Positions 5,385 through 14,800 of a DNA stretch of 64,000 nt are shown here, piece by piece. Numbering within the stretch: the first letter of the stretch is position 1; every line of letters starts with the position of its first letter. The DNA lies in NCBI GenBank assembly GCA_964347045.1, contig CAYFXC010000010.1:41940-105939 (forward strand), read 5' to 3'. The translations under genes were made by a program, and so were the position numbers. The stretch comes from an uncultured archaeon. Lineage in GTDB: Archaea > Asgardarchaeota > Hermodarchaeia > Hermodarchaeales > Hermodarchaeaceae. The notes under the pieces are model-generated. The model saw nothing but the letters and a program-made list of their open reading frames with translations, searched no databases and was not told where the DNA came from.

Positions 5385-7583
5385 TTATGGAAATCCCAGT
5401 CCGATGAGTATCCAGTTTGCCATACCACCGAAAAGAATGGCAAGGGAGATGGTTGTAAAGGCAAGCATGATTGTATATCTCCAGCGGTATTCACGCGCAA
5501 GAACTGCAATTGTTGCAATACATGGAATATAGATCGTAGTCACAAGAGCGAAGACAAATAGTTGACGTGCTGTCATAAAAGCATTCAGAGGACCATTTGC
5601 GAGGATGATTAAGAGTTCGACAGTGAGTTCTTTTCGAAGAATCCCGTAGATTAAGGCTGCGGCAGTTTCTGGAGGTAGACCAAGCCACCCGACAATGAGG
5701 GGGGCAGTCATGAGGCTAAACATGTGTAGATAGGAGAATTGCGGAGTAGGAAAATTTAGTAGAAGTCCCAGAATTGCACCACCTATGATGATGAGGGGGA
5801 GTGCTATGAATACAAACTCACGGAAGCGCATCCATGTTTTTTTCATTGTAGGCTTAAATCGGGGTGCACGAAGTGGAGGTATTTCCATTACGAGTCCATG
5901 AGATGCACCAGGAAGAGTATGCTGAAGAAGTGCTCCTAATCCTATGATAATTGCAAGGACGATACCAAGAATAATGAAGGCAAAAAAGATTGAGCCGAAT
6001 AAACCTACAGTTCCAAGAATAACAGCAAGTTGAGCCGAACAAGGAACGAGAACTACAAGCAATCCAGCAATGATTCTTTCTCTACGAGTATTGAGAATTC
6101 GTGTACTGAGAACAGCAGGTACGTTACAGCCCATTCCGGTGAGTAAGGGAATAATTGCCCGTCCATGCAGCCCAAGGCGATGCATGAAGGCATCAAGTAA
6201 AAATGCAATTCGAGCCATATAGCCTGTGTCTTCGAGAATGGAGAGGATAATGTAGAAGGTGGCAACGAACGGAACAGCTATGAACAGCCACGCTTGGATT
6301 CCGAGTACAAGTCCAAAATAGAGAATGATTTGGATAATTGGCGATGGAATGAAAGCTACAATGAGGTATTGAGCTGTAGGGTTGATGAAGGTTTCCCAGA
6401 ATTCACCTAAAGTTGCTTCAAAAATAGCTCCTACACCGAACATAAGTAGGATGGATCCAATGAGAATTAGCATTGCAATAGGGAGTCCAATCATTCGATG
6501 AGTAAGTATAGTTGAAATTTGCTCAGTTAGGGGAACTCGTTCTCCTTTCCCTTTTTGGACTTGTTCAGTAATGTATATTGTATATTGATGCCGTTTTTCT
6601 CCAAGTACCAAAACGATATCTGCATCAAATTCTCTTTCGATTTCTTGCCGAGTTGCATCAACAAGTTTCATCGCTTTTTCTGATTCTAGTTCTTCCTCGA
6701 CATAATCCCCACATTCAGCATATTCTTCAAGAAGTTGTAGAGAGAAAATTCGTAATGGCAAGCTAGCTAGTCGTATCTGCATTTGACTAAGTTGTTGTTC
6801 TAACTTCCGGAGTTTAGCTTCAATACCATCTGGGAATAGTAATCGCCGTGGGTGTTGACGAGATTTTTCAACAGAACCGGCTTTTGCAGCAGTACTTAGT
6901 AGCAGTTTCAGATTTTTTCCCTGAATTGCCACAGTAGGAATAACAGGAACTCCCAACAAGGTTTCAAGTTTTCTTTCATCAATTTCAATACCCATTCGTC
7001 GGGCAAGATCCACTTGGTTTAAACAAACTACAAGCGGGATATTAAATTCTAATAATGCAGTGGTAAGAAGAAGGTTTCGAGCGAGGTTGGTAGCGTCGAC
7101 AACGTTGACGATAACATCAGGAGTGTCTTGTTGCAGGTACCTGAGGGTGACTTTTTCATCTTTAGTTGCTGGACTAATGATAGTATAGGAGCCTGGTAAA
7201 TCCACAATATCAAGACTTATCACTTCTGATTCTGCTTTAAAATCGTTTTTTGTCCATCTACGAAATCGGCGACCAAATCTCTGTCTTCTCCTCCCGCGCT
7301 GAGGCGGGTCAGCTTCTTCAGTATTAGATGATGTTTCCCATTCCCTAGTTTCAGTAAGTCCCTTAGGCGAATAAATATCGTGATGGGCAAGATAGACTTT
7401 GCCTTGAAGAATTTTTACGGTTGTACCGGGATAATTCGAAACAATGGCACCAAGACCAGTCCAATAATTGAAAATAACGCTTTTCCCAACATTTGGTTGA
7501 CCAACTAAGCCTATTCGTATATGATCCTTTTTCTGATGTCGAATTAGTTGTCGTTGTTTTCCCTTTCGGGAAACCTTCACCAT
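5385..7583 (-). CDS. feoB: Ferrous iron transporter FeoB
   Basis: GQPNVGKS, NYPGTTV, DLPGSY, LEDTGYMARIA, GMGCNVPA, PCSAQ, YIPCIAT. Confidence 0.97.
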   Translation of the reverse strand: MVKVSRKGKQRQLIRHQKKDHIRIGLVGQPNVGKSVIFNYWTGLGAIVSNYPGTTVKILQGKVYLAHHDIYSPKGLTETREWETSSNTEEADPPQRGRRRQRFGRRFRRWTKNDFKAESEVISLDIVDLPGSYTIISPATKDEKVTLRYLQQDTPDVIVNVVDATNLARNLLLTTALLEFNIPLVVCLNQVDLARRMGIEIDERKLETLLGVPVIPTVAIQGKNLKLLLSTAAKAGSVEKSRQHPRRLLFPDGIEAKLRKLEQQLSQMQIRLASLPLRIFSLQLLEEYAECGDYVEEELESEKAMKLVDATRQEIEREFDADIVLVLGEKRHQYTIYITEQVQKGKGERVPLTEQISTILTHRMIGLPIAMLILIGSILLMFGVGAIFEATLGEFWETFINPTAQYLIVAFIPSPIIQIILYFGLVLGIQAWLFIAVPFVATFYIILSILEDTGYMARIAFLLDAFMHRLGLHGRAIIPLLTGMGCNVPAVLSTRILNTRRERIIAGLLVVLVPCSAQLAVILGTVGLFGSIFFAFIILGIVLAIIIGLGALLQHTLPGASHGLVMEIPPLRAPRFKPTMKKTWMRFREFVFIALPLIIIGGAILGLLLNFPTPQFSYLHMFSLMTAPLIVGWLGLPPETAAALIYGILRKELTVELLIILANGPLNAFMTARQLFVFALVTTIYIPCIATIAVLAREYRWRYTIMLAFTTISLAILFGGMANWILIGLGFP

Positions 7584-7602
7584 TCACCCGCTCCGAAAGA
7601 GT

Positions 7603-8346
7603 CTATTTAGAAAGATTACGATGGACTCGTATTCGTTTCGCAAGGGTAGAGCTTAAGGCAAAATGGGCAGTTCCTACTTCAATAAGGAGGGTGTCTCCAA
7701 TTGGGGAAATTTGGATAACACGGACAGTTTCACCAGGAAGTATACCCATTGAAGAAAGCATTCTTAGTATATCGATATTCTCATCGCTGATACAATCGAT
7801 GATTGCTGTTTCGCCTTGTTCTAGGGCAGCCAAATTTAATTTTGATCGAGAAGATACAGTTCCATCCGAGTCTGGAATGGGATTGCCATGTGGGCACCTA
7901 GCAGGGCCTTCGAGCTTTTCGAGAACTTTGTTACAGAGTTCTGGAGTGAGCATGTGCTCCCATTCACAAGCAACTTCGTGAGCTTCCTCCCAGCTAACTC
8001 CTAAAAGGTCAACAAGAAGTCGTTCTGCAACTCGATGACGACGCAGGACATCGAGTGCAAGTTTCCGACCCTTCGCGGTTAAGCGCACTCCTTTATTTTT
8101 CTCATATTTCAAATAGGATTTCTCAGCCAGCTTTTGCACCATTTGTGTCACACTTGCCGGTTTAACATTCAAAGCTTCGGCAAGCTCACCAGTTTTGGCA
8201 TATTTTTCATCGTGTTGAAGAAGCCGAAAGATTGCTTCAAGATACTCCTCAATATTCGCACTTGGAATATCGTATTTGCTGGTTATAGGTGAAGAATTGG
8301 GATCTTCTTTTTTAGCTTCTAGTTGGTTTTGAGGATCAGGAGTCAT
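7603..8346 (-). CDS. DtxR/IdeR/MntR family metal-dependent regulator with C-terminal FeoA domain
   Basis: EEYLEAI, LAEALNVKPASVT, RRHRVAERLL, EACEWEH, CPHGNPIP, then a FeoA-like LSSMGILPGETV. Confidence 0.93.
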   Translation of the reverse strand: MTPDPQNQLEAKKEDPNSSPITSKYDIPSANIEEYLEAIFRLLQHDEKYAKTGELAEALNVKPASVTQMVQKLAEKSYLKYEKNKGVRLTAKGRKLALDVLRRHRVAERLLVDLLGVSWEEAHEVACEWEHMLTPELCNKVLEKLEGPARCPHGNPIPDSDGTVSSRSKLNLAALEQGETAIIDCISDENIDILRMLSSMGILPGETVRVIQISPIGDTLLIEVGTAHFALSSTLAKRIRVHRNLSK

Positions 8347-8353
8347 ATCACAA

Positions 8354-8371
8354 ATTTAGGCGAGCCTAAAT
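8354..8371. promoter_or_regulatory. Putative DtxR-family operator next to the TATA box of the dtxR-feoB operon
   Basis: Perfect inverted repeat ATTTAGGC-GA-GCCTAAAT with TTAGG...CCTAA arms; minus-strand TTTATA at 8371-8376; weaker copy at ~8388-8405. Confidence 0.75.
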
Positions 8372-8410
8372 ATAAATTTTTACATATTGTTAGGGGTGCC
8401 AAAATAGTCA

Positions 8411-9322
8411 TCAAACAAAACCTAGCACCTGAGCACACATAAGAAAATATAACACGAATGAACCTACATCACCCCACCTATCCGTAATATCGTCTACGTC
8501 ATCACGTTTTGCAGGTTTACCATTCAAATATAATTGTGATATAATCTGCCGAATACCTAAATCATCAGCGGGAAAAACTTCCAGTCTTCGAAGGCCTGTT
8601 AAAACGGCCAACTCGGCGGTCCACCTACCAATCCCTCGAAGTGCATCAAGCTGGCTGAGTATAGAATTTGTATCAAGCATACTTAGCGCTTCTAGTTTCA
8701 AAGAGCCTGAAGAAATCGCCTTAAAAAGCCCAATCAGATATGGAGCCTTATATCCAAGTTTACAAGCTCTCAATTCTGCTTCAGATAGGTTCAACAAAGT
8801 TTCCAATGAGGGAAAGCCAAACAGTTTGTCATCGCCAATATAGCATTGCGGACCATAGTCCAGCACAAGCCTCCGAGTTACTTGATTTGCTGATCGAAAA
8901 CTCACCTGCTGCTGTAAAATCGCTTTCACTATAGCCTCAAACAAAGTCGGTTGACTGAAGGGTCGAAGACCACGTAGAGGTTCTTCGAGGTGCGCAATAA
9001 CTGGATCCTTCATGATTTCTTTCAGTACAGGTTGAGTATCAATATCCCACCCTAAAAGCCATTCAATTGAAGTCAAAATTGATCCATAATCACTTCCAAA
9101 TTTCGCAGGCCATTGCAACTGAAGACTTGGATTCGCTCCTTTCCGAAGCTGAATAACGCGAACAGGAATCAACGCATTATTAATTGGTAGGCATCGAGCA
9201 AACTCCCCAGGTCGTTTTTTCTCTGGCGTAGGTTGAATATCAGAGAATACCCAACTATCCACGGTTAAATCCAAATCAAAAGGTCTTTCAAGTTCCACCT
9301 GAAACCCATGAATTTCGGACAT
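8411..9322 (-). CDS. alkA: DNA-3-methyladenine glycosylase II (HhH-GPD family)
   Basis: FEAIVKAILQQQVS, LRGIGRWTAE, FPADDLGI. Confidence 0.9.
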   Translation of the reverse strand: MSEIHGFQVELERPFDLDLTVDSWVFSDIQPTPEKKRPGEFARCLPINNALIPVRVIQLRKGANPSLQLQWPAKFGSDYGSILTSIEWLLGWDIDTQPVLKEIMKDPVIAHLEEPLRGLRPFSQPTLFEAIVKAILQQQVSFRSANQVTRRLVLDYGPQCYIGDDKLFGFPSLETLLNLSEAELRACKLGYKAPYLIGLFKAISSGSLKLEALSMLDTNSILSQLDALRGIGRWTAELAVLTGLRRLEVFPADDLGIRQIISQLYLNGKPAKRDDVDDITDRWGDVGSFVLYFLMCAQVLGFV

Positions 9323-9493
9323 TCATCCACCGGCTTCACTGATTGCCTGAAGACATATTTTATCTTATGCTTCTCGCTTAAAAAAATGTTAAAGCACATG
9401 TTATCAGTTGTTATAGTATGTGGAACAACAGTTCACAACACTTTTAGCCTTATAGATCCAAATAGCAATAATGTTTTTGGAAGTGAAATACAA

Positions 9494-9874
9494 ATGGCAA
9501 TGCTTGGAGTTCAACGTATCATGACAGGACAAAATGTTGAAGCGAGCGACGTGATGCACTGTTTTCTTGGATTACGTACTCTTGAAATAGACGTGTACTT
9601 CTACCTTCTTAAAGGCCAAGCTACTGTAAAAGAAGTTGCAGAAGCCCTCGGGCGTAATCGTAGTTCAATACAACGAGCCATCCAAAACCTTGTTCAACGT
9701 GGATTTGCCCATCGCCGAACTCGTACTTTGCGCAAAGGCGGATATGTATATGTTTATGAAGCGGTCAGCTTAGTTATGATGAAGGATTTGATAAAAGGCG
9801 CCCTTGATTCATTTTATCAGCAAATCGAAGAATTTCTGGATCAATACTGGACCGAATCATCAAAAACAACCTAA
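9494..9874 (+). CDS. TrmB-like (COG3355-type) winged-HTH transcriptional regulator
   Basis: TVKEVAEALGRNRSSIQRAIQNLVQRG...GGYVYVY; start reassigned to ATG 9494. Confidence 0.8.
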   Translation: MAMLGVQRIMTGQNVEASDVMHCFLGLRTLEIDVYFYLLKGQATVKEVAEALGRNRSSIQRAIQNLVQRGFAHRRTRTLRKGGYVYVYEAVSLVMMKDLIKGALDSFYQQIEEFLDQYWTESSKTT

Positions 9875-9992
9875 TCGGTTGTTCATTGTTGTGGCACTAT
9901 CGACAACTTTATATTCAAACGACTGTACACACACTTCAAGACTGTGAAAAAGAATATATTTCCTTTTACAGCATAATAGACGGTGAAAAGAA

Positions 9993-10220
9993 ATGGCGTC
10001 AATTGGCTGCCCATTTTGTACAAAGACTGGCGTTGCTATGGTTATAACCAGCTTAGCACTTGTTCTCCTTAGCATAACGACAACCATTCCTTGGATAGCC
10101 ATCTTAGGCCTAGTCTTCCTCATTGCCGCATACATCGTCCCTAGTATAGTGAGTGGAAAAAGCTGCCATGAAGAAGGCTGTACAAACCCCTCACACAAAC
10201 ATGGAGAGGAAAACTCATAA
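9993..10220 (+). CDS. Small 2-TM membrane protein with N-terminal CxxC and C-terminal Cys/His
   Basis: GCPFC, two hydrophobic helices, SCHEEGCTNPSH; stop overlaps the thioredoxin start. Confidence 0.7.
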   Translation: MASIGCPFCTKTGVAMVITSLALVLLSITTTIPWIAILGLVFLIAAYIVPSIVSGKSCHEEGCTNPSHKHGEENS

Positions 10221-10639
10221 TGAGCGAAACTCCCGATCCTGAACTGACCCGATTACGTGAACAAAAAATTAAGGAGTTACGAGTCAAAAGGGCAACACAA
10301 TCCAAAACCCCAAACACGGCTCCAAATAAAGTACTTCACCTTTCCACCAACGATTTCGACCAAACCATCAGCAAAGGCATCACCCTAGTAGACTTCTTCG
10401 CCGTATGGTGTGGACCCTGCAAGATGATGGCCCCTGTGATTGATCAACTTGCCCAAGAATATGCTGGGCGAGCAAAGGTGGCAAAACTTGATGTTGATCA
10501 GAATATCGAAATTGCGATGCGATACCGCGTGCAAGGCGTCCCAACATTTGGTATCTTTAAGAATGGCGTGCTGGTCCACCGTATTGTTGGTGGTGTTGGC
10601 TATCAGCCTTTGAAAGCCGCTCTTGATTCATTTCTTTAG
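10220..10639 (+). CDS. trxA: Thioredoxin
   Basis: WCGPC active site, VQGVPT cis-Pro motif, archaeal-type N-terminal helix. Confidence 0.95.
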   Translation: MSETPDPELTRLREQKIKELRVKRATQSKTPNTAPNKVLHLSTNDFDQTISKGITLVDFFAVWCGPCKMMAPVIDQLAQEYAGRAKVAKLDVDQNIEIAMRYRVQGVPTFGIFKNGVLVHRIVGGVGYQPLKAALDSFL

Positions 10640-10761
10640 GCTCTGCCAGTTAGTGAAACCTGACAGTTGACTAGACTTCGCCATTTACGGCAGTAGTAAG
10701 TTGATTGTTAGATTTTTCTTTTAAGAAAAGAAATATCATTATAAAGTACTAGTGAGCGACT

Positions 10762-10987
10762 AATTTTAGAACACATTCCTTCCGTGTTCAGGTGGTTCAA
10801 ACTCAAGCAGCTCCGAAAATTTTTTATTGTCAATTCGGATTTTCGTGAGCTGCTGGACCACCCGAGGAATGTCTAGAGTTGCTTCATGCTGACTTCAGAC
10901 TATATGGGAATCGGGTAGCAGCAGCCACATTTACCTCTGCAGCATCGACGGTTTGTTGCAATAAAACCTGAAAGGAGAATTCGGTTA
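10762..10987 (+). promoter_or_regulatory. Long structured 5' leader of grpE-dnaK-dnaJ (candidate cis-regulatory RNA)
   Basis: Four nested helices spanning 10773-10872, a second hairpin at 10918-10959, TTATAAAG at 10739-10746. Confidence 0.5.
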
Positions 10988-11650
10988 ATGACAGAAGACC
11001 CGCAAAAGATAAGCGAAGCACTAGAAATCGCAAAAGACAAGAAGCTAGCTGATGATCCAAACCCTAGGAAAAAAACACCAACCGAATCTAAAAAACCCAA
11101 GAAGCTAACTAAGAAGCAATTGTTGCAAGCCTTGGAAGAGGCGCAAACAAAAGTAGCGAAATACAAAACCCAGCTCGCTTATGTGCAAGCAGAACATGAA
11201 AATTATGTAAAATCAATGGAGCGTCGAGAAGTAAATCTCAGGCTTCAAGCGAATCGCGATTTGATTCTAACACTATTACCAATTTTAGACGATTTAGAAC
11301 GATCACAATTGATGGTTCCCCGAATTGAAGCGAATGACCCATTTATTGAAGGGCTTAGCATGCTAGTGGATAATCTAAAATCTGCTTTAGCACAAGCAGG
11401 CGTCACACCGATCGAATGCACGGGGGAATCCTTTGACCCCTTACGTCATGAGGCTGTGGTACGCGAAGAATCCACGAAGGTTCCTCCGAATACTGTGGTA
11501 GAAGAATTGCGCAAAGGATATCTTCTCAAGGGATCCCTTTTACGACCTTCCATGGTTAAAATTGCGATTGCTCCTAATACACAACCACAAGCAGAGCAAA
11601 AGATTGAAGAGCCACAAGAATCTGCAAACAATGTATCAGAAAAGAAATAA
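10988..11650 (+). CDS. grpE: Nucleotide exchange factor GrpE
   Basis: [34 protein letters not shown]. Confidence 0.96.
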
Positions 11651-11682: not shown

Positions 11683-13587
11683 ATGGTTAAAATTATTGGA
11701 ATAGATTTGGGAACGAGCAACTCAGCTGCAGCTGTGATGCGAGGAGATCGCCCTGTCATCATTCCCAGCGCTGAGGGTCCCACCGTTTCTGGGAAAGCCT
11801 TTCCCTCATATGTGGCCATCACAGATGATGGCAATCGACTTGTTGGTGAACCGGCCCGACGTCAAGCAGTAGCGAACCCTGAGGGTACAGTTACTGCTGT
11901 AAAGCGGAAAATGGGAACTCGTAAAAAGGTTAAGATTCGAGATAAAACCTTTACACCAGAAGAGGTCTCTTCATTCATTCTTCGAAAAATAAAAACCGAT
12001 GCCGAAGCGTTTCTCGGAGAACCAGTCATTCAAGCAGTTATCACTGTTCCTGCGTATTTTAATGATAACCAGCGCCAAGCGACAAAAGATGCAGGAGAAC
12101 TTGCAGGTCTTGAAGTAGTTCGGCTGATCAACGAACCCACCGCTGCTTCATTAGCATATGGTATTGATAAGCTCGATAAGGATCTTCGAATCCTGGTGTT
12201 TGACCTCGGTGGTGGAACATTGGATGTGACCATCATGGAATTTGGTCCAGATCCAGAAACAGGAAGCGGGCTTTTTCAAGTAGTATCAACAGCGGGAGAT
12301 ACTCAACTTGGCGGAACTGACATGGATCTCGCGATTGCTGAATGGCTAGCTGATGAATTCAAAGGAGAGCATGGCATGGATCTTCATGACGATCCCACTG
12401 CTTGGCAACGGCTCATTGAAGCCGCGGAGAAAGCTAAAATTGAGCTATCCAATGTCATTGAGACAGAAATCAACTTGCCGTATCTGACAGCTGATAAAGG
12501 TGGACCCAAACATCTCCAACGAAAAATCACGCGAGCAAAACTAGAGGATCTTGTTCGAGATATAATTGATCGCTGTGACGGTCCTATGCGACAAGCTATC
12601 AAGGATGCCAAACTGCGACCTAACGAGGTTGATAAAATCATTCTCATTGGTGGACCTACCAGAATGCCTATTGTTCGACAATATGTCGAAAAGTTCATTG
12701 GTAAGAAAGCGGAGCGGGGCGTAGATCCAATGGAAGCAGTTGCTCTCGGTGCAGCCATTCAAGGTGGCGTAATCACGGGCGATGTCAAAGACCTGCTTCT
12801 GTTAGATGTCACTCCACTTTCGCTTGGTGTAGAAACCAAAGGAGATATCATGACACCCATCATCGAACGCAATACGACTATTCCTGTTGAACGTAGTCAA
12901 ATCTTTAGTACAGCAGCAGATATGCAAACTGTTGTAACTATCCATGTGTTACAGGGTGAACGATCTAGGGCAAGTCAAAATATTTCACTTGGCCAATTCA
13001 ATCTAACAGGAATACCACCAGCACCAATGGGTGTACCACAAATTGAAGTTACCTTTGACATTGACGTCAATGGCATTCTCCATGTTAAGGCTAAAGATCT
13101 TGGGACAGGAAATGAACAGAAAATCACCATTTCCGCTTCGACCAAATTAACTGATGAACAAAAGGACCGAATGGTAGCAGACTCTGAAAAATATGAAGAA
13201 GAGGATAAGCGCTACCGCGAAGAAGTTGAAGAGCTTAACAAGGCAGAGTCATTGGTCTATTCCGCTCGGAAGACGATTAAAGAACTTGGAGACAAAATCA
13301 GTGAAGAAGATAAACAGAAGGTCGAAGAAGCAGCGAACCGGTTAGAAAAAGCGGTTCAGGAAAAGGATTTAGCAACCACTAAAAAAGAGATGGAAACACT
13401 CACCGATATTCTTCAAGGTATTGGAACCGCAGTATATCAACAAGTTGCAGAGGAACAGGCTCGGGCTCAAGCACAAGAAGGAGTTGCTGATGATTCTGAT
13501 TCGGAGCCCAAGAAGAAAAAGAAGAAGAGTAAAGAGAAAGTTGTAGACGCCGATTATGAAGTTGTGGACGACGAGGACAAGAAGTAA
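11683..13587 (+). CDS. dnaK: Chaperone DnaK (Hsp70)
   Basis: [43 protein letters not shown]. Confidence 0.99.
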
Positions 13588-13687: not shown

Positions 13688-14800
13688 GTGAGTTATGGTA
13701 GCAATCAAAAACGAGATTATTACGAAGTGCTTGGTGTAGAACGGAAAGCTACCAAAGAAGAAATTAGAAAAGCGTATAGAAAGCTTGCACTGAAATTTCA
13801 CCCAGATCGGAATAAAGAAGCTGATGCTGCAGAGAAATTCAAGGAAGTCTCTGAAGCCTATGCAATTCTTTCAGATGACGAAAAGCGGCTCCAGTATGAC
13901 CAATTTGGGCATGCTGGGATTCACGGACGATATAGTGCTGAGGATATTTTTGGTGGGATTAATTTCGAAGATATTCTGCGCAGTTTTGGATTAGGTGGGA
14001 GACTTGGCGGTGTCGGTAGCATCTTCGACTTCTTAATGGGTCGAGGAGGACGAAGAACTTCACGTCGCGATCAGGCAATAGATCTGCGATATGATATGAA
14101 TATTACATTAAAAGAAGCTGCGACAGGTATTGAGAAGGAAATCACGCTCAAGCGCGACGAGCAATGTCCGAAATGTGGAGGAACAGGGGGAGAACCCGGA
14201 ACACCTCTAAGAACCTGTTCCCGTTGTGGTGGGCGAGGCGAGCTTCGACAAGTCCAGCAAACCATGTTTGGACAGGTTATTCGTGTTGCTACATGTCCGG
14301 GATGTTATGGTCATGGTCAAACGGTAGAAACGCCCTGCTCTGAGTGTAGAGGAAAAAGAACCGTTCGAGAAAAACGAAATATTCGAGTCCAAATACCACC
14401 AGGAGTTGAATCAGGTTCAATGCTTAGGCTTAGGGACCAAGGAGCGTCACAGGAAGGAGGAAAACCTGGCGACCTTTATGTTGTTGTCCATATCAAGCCT
14501 GATAAAATCTTTCAGCGTGTAGGCGACGATATCCTGATGGAATTACCCATTTCAATAACCCAAGCTACATTAGGAACTGAACTCGAGATCCCAACTCTCC
14601 TTTCCAAAGCAAAATTAAAAATCCCTGCTGGCACCCAACCAGATACAATTCTCCGTCTAAGAGGACAAGGCATGCCTCGTGTCCGATGGCGAGGAAATGG
14701 GGATCAATTAATTCGAATTAAGGTAGATGTTCCCAAAAAACTCAACAAACATCAGCGAGACCTTTTGGAACAACTTGCAGATGAGCTTGACAGAGATTAG
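13688..14800 (+). CDS. dnaJ: Chaperone DnaJ
   Basis: J domain with HPD, G/F-rich region, four CxxCxGxG-type repeats. Confidence 0.98.

Follow-up and report, generated by a model that had tools for sequence, protein, structure and literature searches.

A conserved region before the grpE-dnaK-dnaJ operon in one Asgard genus: a promoter/operator and structured leader are likelier than an RNA thermometer

The DNA analyzed here (the window) is a stretch of 64,000 nt from an uncultured archaeon of the family Hermodarchaeaceae (contig CAYFXC010000010.1, assembly GCA_964347045.1), in which the chaperone genes grpE, dnaK and dnaJ follow a thioredoxin gene, trx. Across the genus, the same-strand order at this locus is a gene for an Lrs14/Sta1-like winged helix-turn-helix (wHTH) protein, a gene for a 75-aa membrane protein (9993-10220; orf75), trx and grpE-dnaK-dnaJ. 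The spacer between trx and grpE is 348 nt long and contains the whole of the element considered here, which a preliminary description had taken for a structured leader with a possible two-state switch over the Shine-Dalgarno sequence (SD) of grpE, making it a candidate RNA thermometer, switch or non-coding RNA. We found that the observation behind this description is largely right and its interpretation only partly right: the spacer holds a conserved block organized like an archaeal core promoter, with an inverted repeat around it and a structured leader after it, and the region is more likely a promoter/operator of this kind than a thermometer. The features are collected in Table 1.

Table 1. 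Features of the trx-grpE region, in window coordinates
Feature	Coordinates	Strand	Details
Lrs14/Sta1-like wHTH gene	9494-9874	+	Sta1 E 3.2e-15, Lrs14 E 8.7e-11, both below curated cut-offs; PDB 3r0a
Thioredoxin gene trx	10220-10639	+	Pfam Thioredoxin E 2.4e-28; TIGR01068 101.9 bits
Terminator-like hairpin (10660-10711) and T-run (10713-10722) after trx	10660-10722	+	Long-spacer clade only
P1, candidate BRE/TATA AAAAGAAATATCA-TTATAAAG	10726-10746	+	One clade only
Small 5' hairpin GAACAC/GTGTTC, loop ATTCCTTCC	10769-10789	+	Unchanged among the 7 long-spacer sequences
Segment 1: left arms GGTGGTTC and AGCAGCTC, bulge AAACTCA between	10791-10813	+	Complementary to 10847-10862
P2: BRE-like CCGAAAA (10813-10819) and TATA-like TTTTTTAT (10820-10827)	10813-10827	+	Most conserved block of the spacer
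Variable 11-nt spacer 3' of the TATA box (3' half of the hairpin loop)	10828-10838	+	No invariant or near-invariant column; both flanks conserved
Right arms ATTTTCG, GAGCTGCT, GGACCACC, then CCCGAG	10839-10866	+	Conserved genus-wide even without a left-arm partner; read as A/T-rich promoter-proximal element, predicted P2 start and first mRNA nucleotides
HP2 leader hairpin GTCTAGAG/CTTCAGAC	10871-10900	+	Hairpin at the same position in 13/13 species
Segment 3 TATGGGAATCGGGTAGCAGCAGC	10903-10925	+	Potential competitor of segment 1 for pairing with 10849-10866 (GCUGCUG:CAGCAGC, CCCGA:UCGGG)
SD (AGGAG) and grpE start codon (10988)	10973-10990	+	GGAGGA and ATGAC or GTGAC conserved
grpE	10988-11650	+	Pfam GrpE 9.2e-40
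dnaK	11683-13587	+	Pfam HSP70 2.1e-218
dnaJ	13688-14800	+	Pfam DnaJ, DnaJ_C and CXXCXGXG

The long hairpin of ~100 nt (10773-10872) is real and beyond chance. As previously described, it is built from four nested helices, here called a to d from the outside in, at 10773-80/10865-72, 10791-98/10855-62, 10806-13/10847-54 and 10814-20/10839-45 (inverted repeats I1, I4, I5 and I14). The 106 nt from 10770 to 10875 fold at -40.8 kcal/mol, versus -22.0 ± 3.5 kcal/mol for 200 shuffled sequences, none of which was as stable (z -5.45). The minus strand is equally stable (z -5.27), so the fold cannot separate an RNA hairpin from a DNA palindrome. The element is also a single-copy sequence, with one full-length match in the 2.58-Mb assembly, which rejects a miniature inverted-repeat transposable element or other dispersed repeat; a near match to the right arm at window position ~3921 falls inside a 673-aa open reading frame (ORF) and is due to chance. 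Two checks that had been proposed for an RNA role gave nothing: along the long hairpin, seven pairs had double changes against 6.9 in shuffled controls, and a search of Rfam at E values up to 10 returned no family match but noise, the best hits being miRNA models at 18.3 bits (gathering score 90, E 1.4).

We compared spacers among related genomes. By blastn, the element was found in 12 of 14 other genomes of the genus and in none of four sister-genus genomes, and there was no convincing match among ~380 other Asgard genomes. Inspection of the spacers revealed the core in 13 species, including this genome; beyond these, one further contig is cut and one genome has no GrpE match. A metagenome scan added one true locus, L150, and recovered a second that is identical to G006; our alignment comprises the 13 species and L150. 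The element is thus confined to one Hermodarchaeota-type Asgard genus, where it always lies between trx and grpE. Six of the species and L150 share a long spacer; in the other seven, 44-107 nt separate the trx stop codon from the core, and these species have neither the upstream promoter-like module P1 nor the left arms of helices a and b. Within the long-spacer clade the identity of the core is 0.93, and over all 13 species it is 0.74. The corresponding values for trx are 0.53 and 0.49 at third codon positions and 0.92 and 0.91 at first and second ones, whose level of conservation the core matches. CCGAAA and the grpE start codon stand 172-179 nt apart in the 11 species with an unambiguous start codon. 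None of the small ORFs in the spacer is conserved, nor is an ATG at 10869. The earlier view of the spacer as a structured regulatory region before an archaeal Hsp70 operon therefore survives in that the sequence is constrained, non-coding, free of CIRCE (controlling inverted repeat of chaperone expression) elements and not a repeat; the thermometer and the switch over the SD are not supported.

The strongest constraint falls inside the hairpin, at the 3' end of its inner stem and in the 5' half of its predicted loop. Across the 13 species, the invariant columns read TCCGAAA.T.TTTTAT (10812-10827; TCCGAAAATnTTTTAT in this genome), alignment columns T45-A51, T53 and T55-T60 being without change. 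After 11 variable nucleotides, conservation returns with ATTTTCGTGAGCTGCTGGACCACCCG. This succession reads as an archaeal core promoter, which we call P2: a purine-rich TFB-recognition element (BRE) directly precedes a TATA box of 8 bp rich in A and T, and an unconstrained spacer separates the two from an A/T-rich proximal element and an initiator. The BRE is conserved in one orientation only, that of the plus strand, and the position that would serve as BRE on the minus strand falls in the variable spacer. In archaea the TATA box lies at about -26/-27 from the start; counting ~26 nt from the TATA center at 10823.5 would place the P2 start at ~10847-10852, inside the right arm. A start downstream of the stems had been named in the preliminary description as a finding that would speak against it, and the predicted P2 start would fall within the right arm. 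Similar boxes (CGAAAcggTTAAAAT, GCAAAGGTTTTTAAC, GCAAAACTCATATAAAC and CGAAA-n3-TTAAAAT) precede tRNA genes of this genome, at -35 to -45, and TATA-type hexamers, including TTTTAT and TTTTTA, are ~2.2-fold enriched 5' of ORFs.

The core is bracketed by an inverted repeat, whose left half, AGCAGCTC-CGAAAAT (10806-10820), and right half, ATTTTCG-t-GAGCTGCT (10839-10854), lie on either side of the BRE/TATA boxes, the right arm covering the predicted P2 start. The centers of the outer arms are 41 bp apart, or about four helical turns. The two inner helices that correspond to this repeat, c and d, are near-invariant and paired in 92.3% of cells in the 13-species alignment, with one compensatory pair. 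Pairing declines outward, to 74.4% of cells in helix b and 63.5% in helix a, which is perfect in this genome only; the position opposite A10775 is mismatched in every relative. The GGTGGTTC arm is exclusive to the long-spacer clade, and only its six species and L150 have left arms for helices a and b. By contrast, AAGCAnCTC, directly 5' of the BRE, is kept across the genus, also in species that have no P1, and four of the seven short-spacer species (G013, G014, G007 and G012) retain a GGACCACCC-like right side; the G002 subclade differs there, with AGGGACCG.

We favor the interpretation that the spacer carries a core promoter, a flanking inverted-repeat operator and a structured leader of ~140 nt for grpE-dnaK-dnaJ, and put its probability at roughly one half. 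The genus-wide, ancestral layer would be a canonical P2, with BRE CCGAAAA, TATA box TTTTTTAT, an 11-nt spacer, the A/T-rich ATTTT (10839-43) and a start at ~10847-10852. An inverted repeat around such a promoter would fit a dimeric or bridging regulator that gates access of TBP, TFB and RNA polymerase. The P2 mRNA would begin with a leader of ~140 nt, whose 5' end, GCUGCUGG-ACCACCCGAG, may pair with UUUGGG, UCGGG and CAGCAGC around the leader hairpin HP2. On top of this, one clade would have added a second layer, P1 (TTATAAAG, 10739-46), 80 nt upstream.

Several observations weigh against this interpretation. Neither arm of the inverted repeat recurs in the genome at up to 3-4 mismatches, chance hits inside genes aside, so the repeat is a single site with no regulon to support an operator; searching the genome for a regulon with both the arms and the BRE/TATA block likewise gave nothing convincing. 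The symmetry of CGAAAAT and ATTTTCG could reflect the similar composition of a BRE and a proximal element, and the palindrome is not preserved strictly, a U-C or U-U mismatch interrupting helix c at its center in five of the 13 species. The regulator of the operator is a candidate only, the neighboring Lrs14/Sta1-like wHTH protein. We were unable to obtain a genome-wide BRE/TATA matrix, either by expectation-maximization on 1197 crude upstream regions or by anchoring on TATA hexamers (no convergence, no BRE signal), probably owing to crude ORF calls and starts, and P2 thus has no quantitative promoter score. Both start sites, at P1 and at P2, are predicted from geometry alone, and TTTTTTAT is a weaker TATA box than the upstream TTATAAAG. 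Finally, a DNA palindrome and an RNA hairpin predict the same for most columns. Helix b has few transitions (three C-to-T on its left arm, one on its right), and each of them yields a G-U pair on the plus strand; this hints that the RNA pairs in the P1 clade, although the events are too few for a test.

HrcA (PF01628) was found in none of the 15 genomes of the genus (72-91% complete), while controls were positive in seven bacteria. A remnant of a CIRCE/HrcA system was rejected accordingly: in agreement with the preliminary description, TTAGCACTC-N9-GAGTGCTAA had no match in the 64 kb at up to three mismatches. The Lrs14/Sta1-like gene, 1.1 kb upstream, keeps its syntenic place, and its protein reaches identities of up to ~89% within the genus, against up to ~64% for GrpE. 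Its ORF (188 aa from 9308) is conserved only from about residue 60, and the real start is likely the ATG at 9494, giving a protein of 126 aa. Tandem GTTGTGGCAC-like repeats with 11-nt spacing occur genus-wide at two places: at 9418-9441, 5' of the wHTH gene and in inverted orientation, and at 9877-9897, directly 5' of a TATA-like CTTTATAT (9907-9914) before orf75-trx. They are probably sites of the wHTH regulator, serving autoregulation and control of trx. No such repeats were found in the grpE spacer, and an attempt to link the putative sites of the protein to this spacer gave no convincing match, which leaves the wHTH protein only a candidate regulator of the operon.

Downstream of the predicted P2 start, the leader has structure of its own. 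HP2 keeps its place with sequences specific to each subclade (GUCUGGA/UCCAGAC, GUCCGGA/UCUGGAC, GUAAUGCC/GGCAUUAC, AGAGAGUC/GACUCUU and others) and a mean z of -1.36 in per-species folds. Because the subclades are not alignable by sequence, RNAalifold on a MAFFT alignment of the leaders gave only a weak consensus (-2 kcal/mol), and the evidence for HP2 is that of the per-species folds. Beyond HP2, nine of the 13 species have a CAGC whose distance from CCGAAA is fixed (+105 to +109) and which can pair with GCUG at the predicted mRNA 5' end; in this genome, CCCGA also pairs with UCGGG. This pairing with segment 3 appears in minimum free energy (MFE) folds of P2-type leaders. The stretch 10847-10866 can therefore pair either upstream or downstream, and its upstream partner exists only in RNAs made from P1.

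By contrast, we found little to tie the structure to the SD. The conserved hairpin ends at 10872, 100 nt before the SD (10973-77), and no imperfect helix encloses the SD. Nucleotides 10876-10990, the 3' half of the region, fold no better than shuffled sequences (z +0.81); the second hairpin proposed there (10918-26/10950-59) can be drawn but is not the MFE choice and is not conserved. Of the alternative state that was to form the switch, the complementary sequences TTCAGGT and ACCTGAA (I13) are present and TTCCT can pair with AGGAG with one G-U, but neither pairing is beyond chance or conserved, and ACCTGAA is absent from the corresponding place in all relatives, just as the outer helix pairs in fewer than two-thirds of cells. 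Nor is this state incompatible with the long stem, as had been supposed: it costs ~3 kcal/mol (-64.5 versus -67.7 kcal/mol), and most of the stem stays in place. When folded across temperatures, the hairpin retained an MFE of -40.2 kcal/mol at 37°C, -13.5 kcal/mol at 70°C and -7.7 kcal/mol at 80°C, where 27 pairs remained; predicted SD accessibility hardly changed from 15 to 65°C, with an unpaired probability of 0.38-0.51 in a P1-type RNA.

The left half of the hairpin has a different history from the core. The TTATAAAG box pointed out in the preliminary description is present at 10739-10746 and is kept as TTATAAA(G/T) in seven related sequences (clade box AAAAGAAATAnnATTATAAA). It is followed by ~22 variable nucleotides and then by ~97 near-invariant ones, from 10769 (GAACAC...) to 10866; box, variable stretch and abrupt near-invariance together form the footprint of a promoter and a transcript constrained from its first base. 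It is plausible, from this pattern of conservation, that in one clade an RNA is made from ~10769 off the TTATAAAG promoter, and an RNA-level role for the left half cannot then be dismissed. Its first ~50 nt would be invariant. They would begin with the small 5' hairpin, which whole-leader MFE folds prefer over the outermost helix and whose CU-rich loop (AUUCCUUCC as RNA) resembles an anti-SD sequence. They would continue with GGUGGUUC...AGCAGCUC, complementary to 10847-10862. The module thus looks like a second promoter, and the main mRNA would begin with sequence complementary to the RNA made from it. Such an RNA would have to cross the T6 run of the P2 TATA box, where it may end, at ~55 nt, or read through and form the long hairpin. 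The terminator-like hairpin and T-run after trx, of a bacterial style, occur only in the clade that also holds P1, and the hairpin arms vary among species yet remain complementary (CAGTTGAC.., CAGCCAAT.., CAGTCAAC..). G013 groups with the six long-spacer species in one clade (Shimodaira-Hasegawa-like approximate likelihood ratio test, SH-aLRT, 85) of a tree built from GrpE, Trx and the DnaK N-terminal part. In G013 the P1 box is destroyed (CAATTGAGAG) and the left arm has decayed, with ACCGTTTC in place of GGTGGTTC, while BRE/TATA and GGACCACCCGA are intact, indicating that the left half depends on P1 and that the right half and the core do not.

These features allow other explanations, of which two keep some standing. 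The element might act purely as RNA, with no internal promoter, the hairpin lying in a long P1 leader or, in species that have no P1, in trx-grpE intercistronic RNA; it could then be a two-state attenuator (segment 1:2 versus 2:3), a processing or stability signal, or a U-rich loop bound by an Sm-like or other protein. The great stability of the hairpin (z -5.4), the mutually exclusive pairing of 10849-10866 with 10791-10813 or 10903-10925, the transcription from ~10769 suggested by the P1 footprint, the G-U character of the helix b transitions on the plus strand and the marking of the downstream region as structured RNA by HP2 are all what such a role predicts. We nevertheless consider it doubtful. 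The most conserved letters, in the loop and inner stem, read as BRE and TATA while the 3' half of the loop varies; seven of 13 species have no left arm for helix a or helix b, and four of these seven keep the right arm; the U-C or U-U mismatch sits in the middle of helix c in five species; and neither significant covariation nor an Rfam family was found. In addition, the T6 run in the loop would tend to halt archaeal polymerase coming from P1.

The other explanation takes P1 as the promoter of a separate small RNA gene, starting at ~10769 and stopping at the T6 run near 10825, whose product of ~55 nt pairs in trans with the 5' end and SD of the grpE mRNA, with P2 remaining the operon promoter. 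T6 runs are a likely archaeal termination signal, through oligo-T termination, and this one stands at the right distance. The conserved BRE/TATA of P1, the variable 22 nt followed by ~50 invariant ones, the complementarity to 10847-10862 with an anti-SD-like loop, and the coincidence in G013 of P1 loss with decay of the complementary arm would all follow. On the other side, start, stop and product are all predicted from sequence, the invariance of segment 1 could reflect DNA sites 5' of P2, AAGCAnCTC is kept even where P1 is absent, and no other target was found in the genome. We therefore regard a separate small RNA gene as unlikely, and hold only tentatively its most specific form, that in one clade a ~55-nt RNA pairs with both the SD and the initial ~16 nt of the grpE-dnaK-dnaJ mRNA while its T6 stop doubles as the P2 TATA box. 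If it were true, one piece of DNA would serve as terminator for the regulator and as promoter for its target, and the long hairpin would be a duplex of regulator and target encoded in cis. The locus would then offer a first candidate case of a chaperone operon controlled by RNA in Asgard archaea.

An RNA thermometer, in which heat would melt a structure hiding the grpE SD or start codon, is very improbable: heat-shock genes do lie downstream, the SD has possible pairing partners in TTCCT (10776-80) and the loop UUCCUUCC, and the alternative state is only ~3 kcal/mol away in this genome, but at least 27 pairs persist up to 80°C in a hairpin that leaves the SD outside, SD accessibility in a P1-type RNA stays within the same narrow range from 15 to 65°C, ACCTGAA is not conserved in a 3' part that folds no better than chance, and species that have no P1 module have no anti-SD segment.

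A promoter/operator with a structured leader, which we prefer, also bears comparison with known heat-shock control systems. In Pyrococcus furiosus and Archaeoglobus fulgidus, Phr/HSR1 proteins bind an inverted repeat at the core promoter and start of heat-shock genes and repress by blocking the basal machinery. The present locus is similar in having an inverted repeat that overlaps the core promoter and predicted start of heat-shock genes and a wHTH regulator gene near the chaperone genes. However, the arms here, AGCAGCTC and GAGCTGCT, bracket BRE/TATA with 41 bp between outer centers, whereas the Phr/HSR1 site is compact and lies over the start; the site here is single, with no regulon; and the neighboring wHTH protein is Lrs14/Sta1-like with other putative sites, no Phr-like regulator having been identified. 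In the autoregulated Lrs14-type promoters of Sulfolobales, a small wHTH regulator binds repeats overlapping BRE/TATA. The Lrs14/Sta1-like neighbor and its conserved synteny recall this arrangement, but the GTTGTGGCAC-like repeats lie at the wHTH gene and orf75 and not in the grpE spacer.

The bacterial CIRCE/HrcA system (hrcA-grpE-dnaK-dnaJ) also places a palindrome before grpE-dnaK-dnaJ, and AGCAGCTC is superficially like the CIRCE half TTAGCACTC, although the spacer between AGCAGCTC and GAGCTGCT is 33 bp versus 9 in CIRCE. ROSE and fourU thermometers resemble the present region in their position in heat-shock 5' leaders and in a CU-rich segment that can pair with the SD; they differ in that the SD here is outside the conserved structure, the hairpin is far too stable and the anti-SD pairing is not conserved beyond one clade. 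In the haloarchaeal hsp5 promoter, the heat response resides in the BRE and TATA box themselves and the flanks are dispensable (Lu et al. 2008; PMC2396416). By analogy, control information in the BRE/TATA core could explain the invariance of these boxes here, whereas the flanks, dispensable in hsp5, are conserved and palindromic in the genus studied here.

The wider locus is stable in gene order. Throughout the family, trx adjoins grpE on its 5' side in every species, and the trx-grpE order is retained in 16 of 17 family loci, the 17th contig ending 133 nt 5' of the grpE start. Upstream, divergent neighbors on the minus strand (5385-9322; a 732-aa ORF, a 247-aa ORF and an HhH-GPD base-excision protein) are syntenic in 7-9 of the 11 other genus genomes with contigs reaching that far, so the whole ~10-kb block is stable. 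The 75-aa ORF (9993-10220, plus strand), which abuts trx, has CPFC near its N terminus, a hydrophobic core and a C-terminal C..C/His-rich tail, and is 56-83% identical within the genus; an antisense 112-aa ORF (9860-10198, minus strand) that overlaps it is less conserved and probably spurious. The orf75 leader (9945-9985) has a hairpin, CTGTG...TACAG here and CTGCA...TGCAG in relatives, followed by a conserved GGACGGTGAA SD region. Long structured leaders seem to be common in the trx-grpE gene cluster.

In the sister genus (L023-L025), the element is lacking and the spacer is a different one, with its own conserved AGAAAACCTTAAAA box; these spacers have a GC-rich hairpin after trx and a conserved GAGAAAACCTTAAAA(C/T)ACG box ~90 nt before grpE. 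The sister-genus box looks like an independent way of placing a promoter at this position, suggesting that an independent grpE promoter in the trx-grpE spacer is the rule in the family. A bacterial origin of archaeal Hsp70 operons is accepted, and the nearest GrpE loci beyond the genus fit it: they are bacterial (L048-L118; Thermoanaerobaculia/Acidobacteriota and Chloroflexota), at 34-44% identity, and other Asgard GrpE proteins are no nearer, at 27-38%. These identities hint at a separate acquisition of the operon from bacteria.

If the region is only a promoter with an operator, it would be an ordinary kind of element in an interesting lineage. It supplies concrete sequences for in vitro transcription, footprinting and mapping of 5' ends in metatranscriptomes. 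More broadly, a bacterial Hsp70 operon had to be rewired to the archaeal, eukaryote-like transcription machinery, and the region offers a testable case of this: in place of HrcA/CIRCE, it would have a conserved BRE/TATA core, an inverted repeat and a structured leader, to which one clade may have added a further promoter and an RNA.

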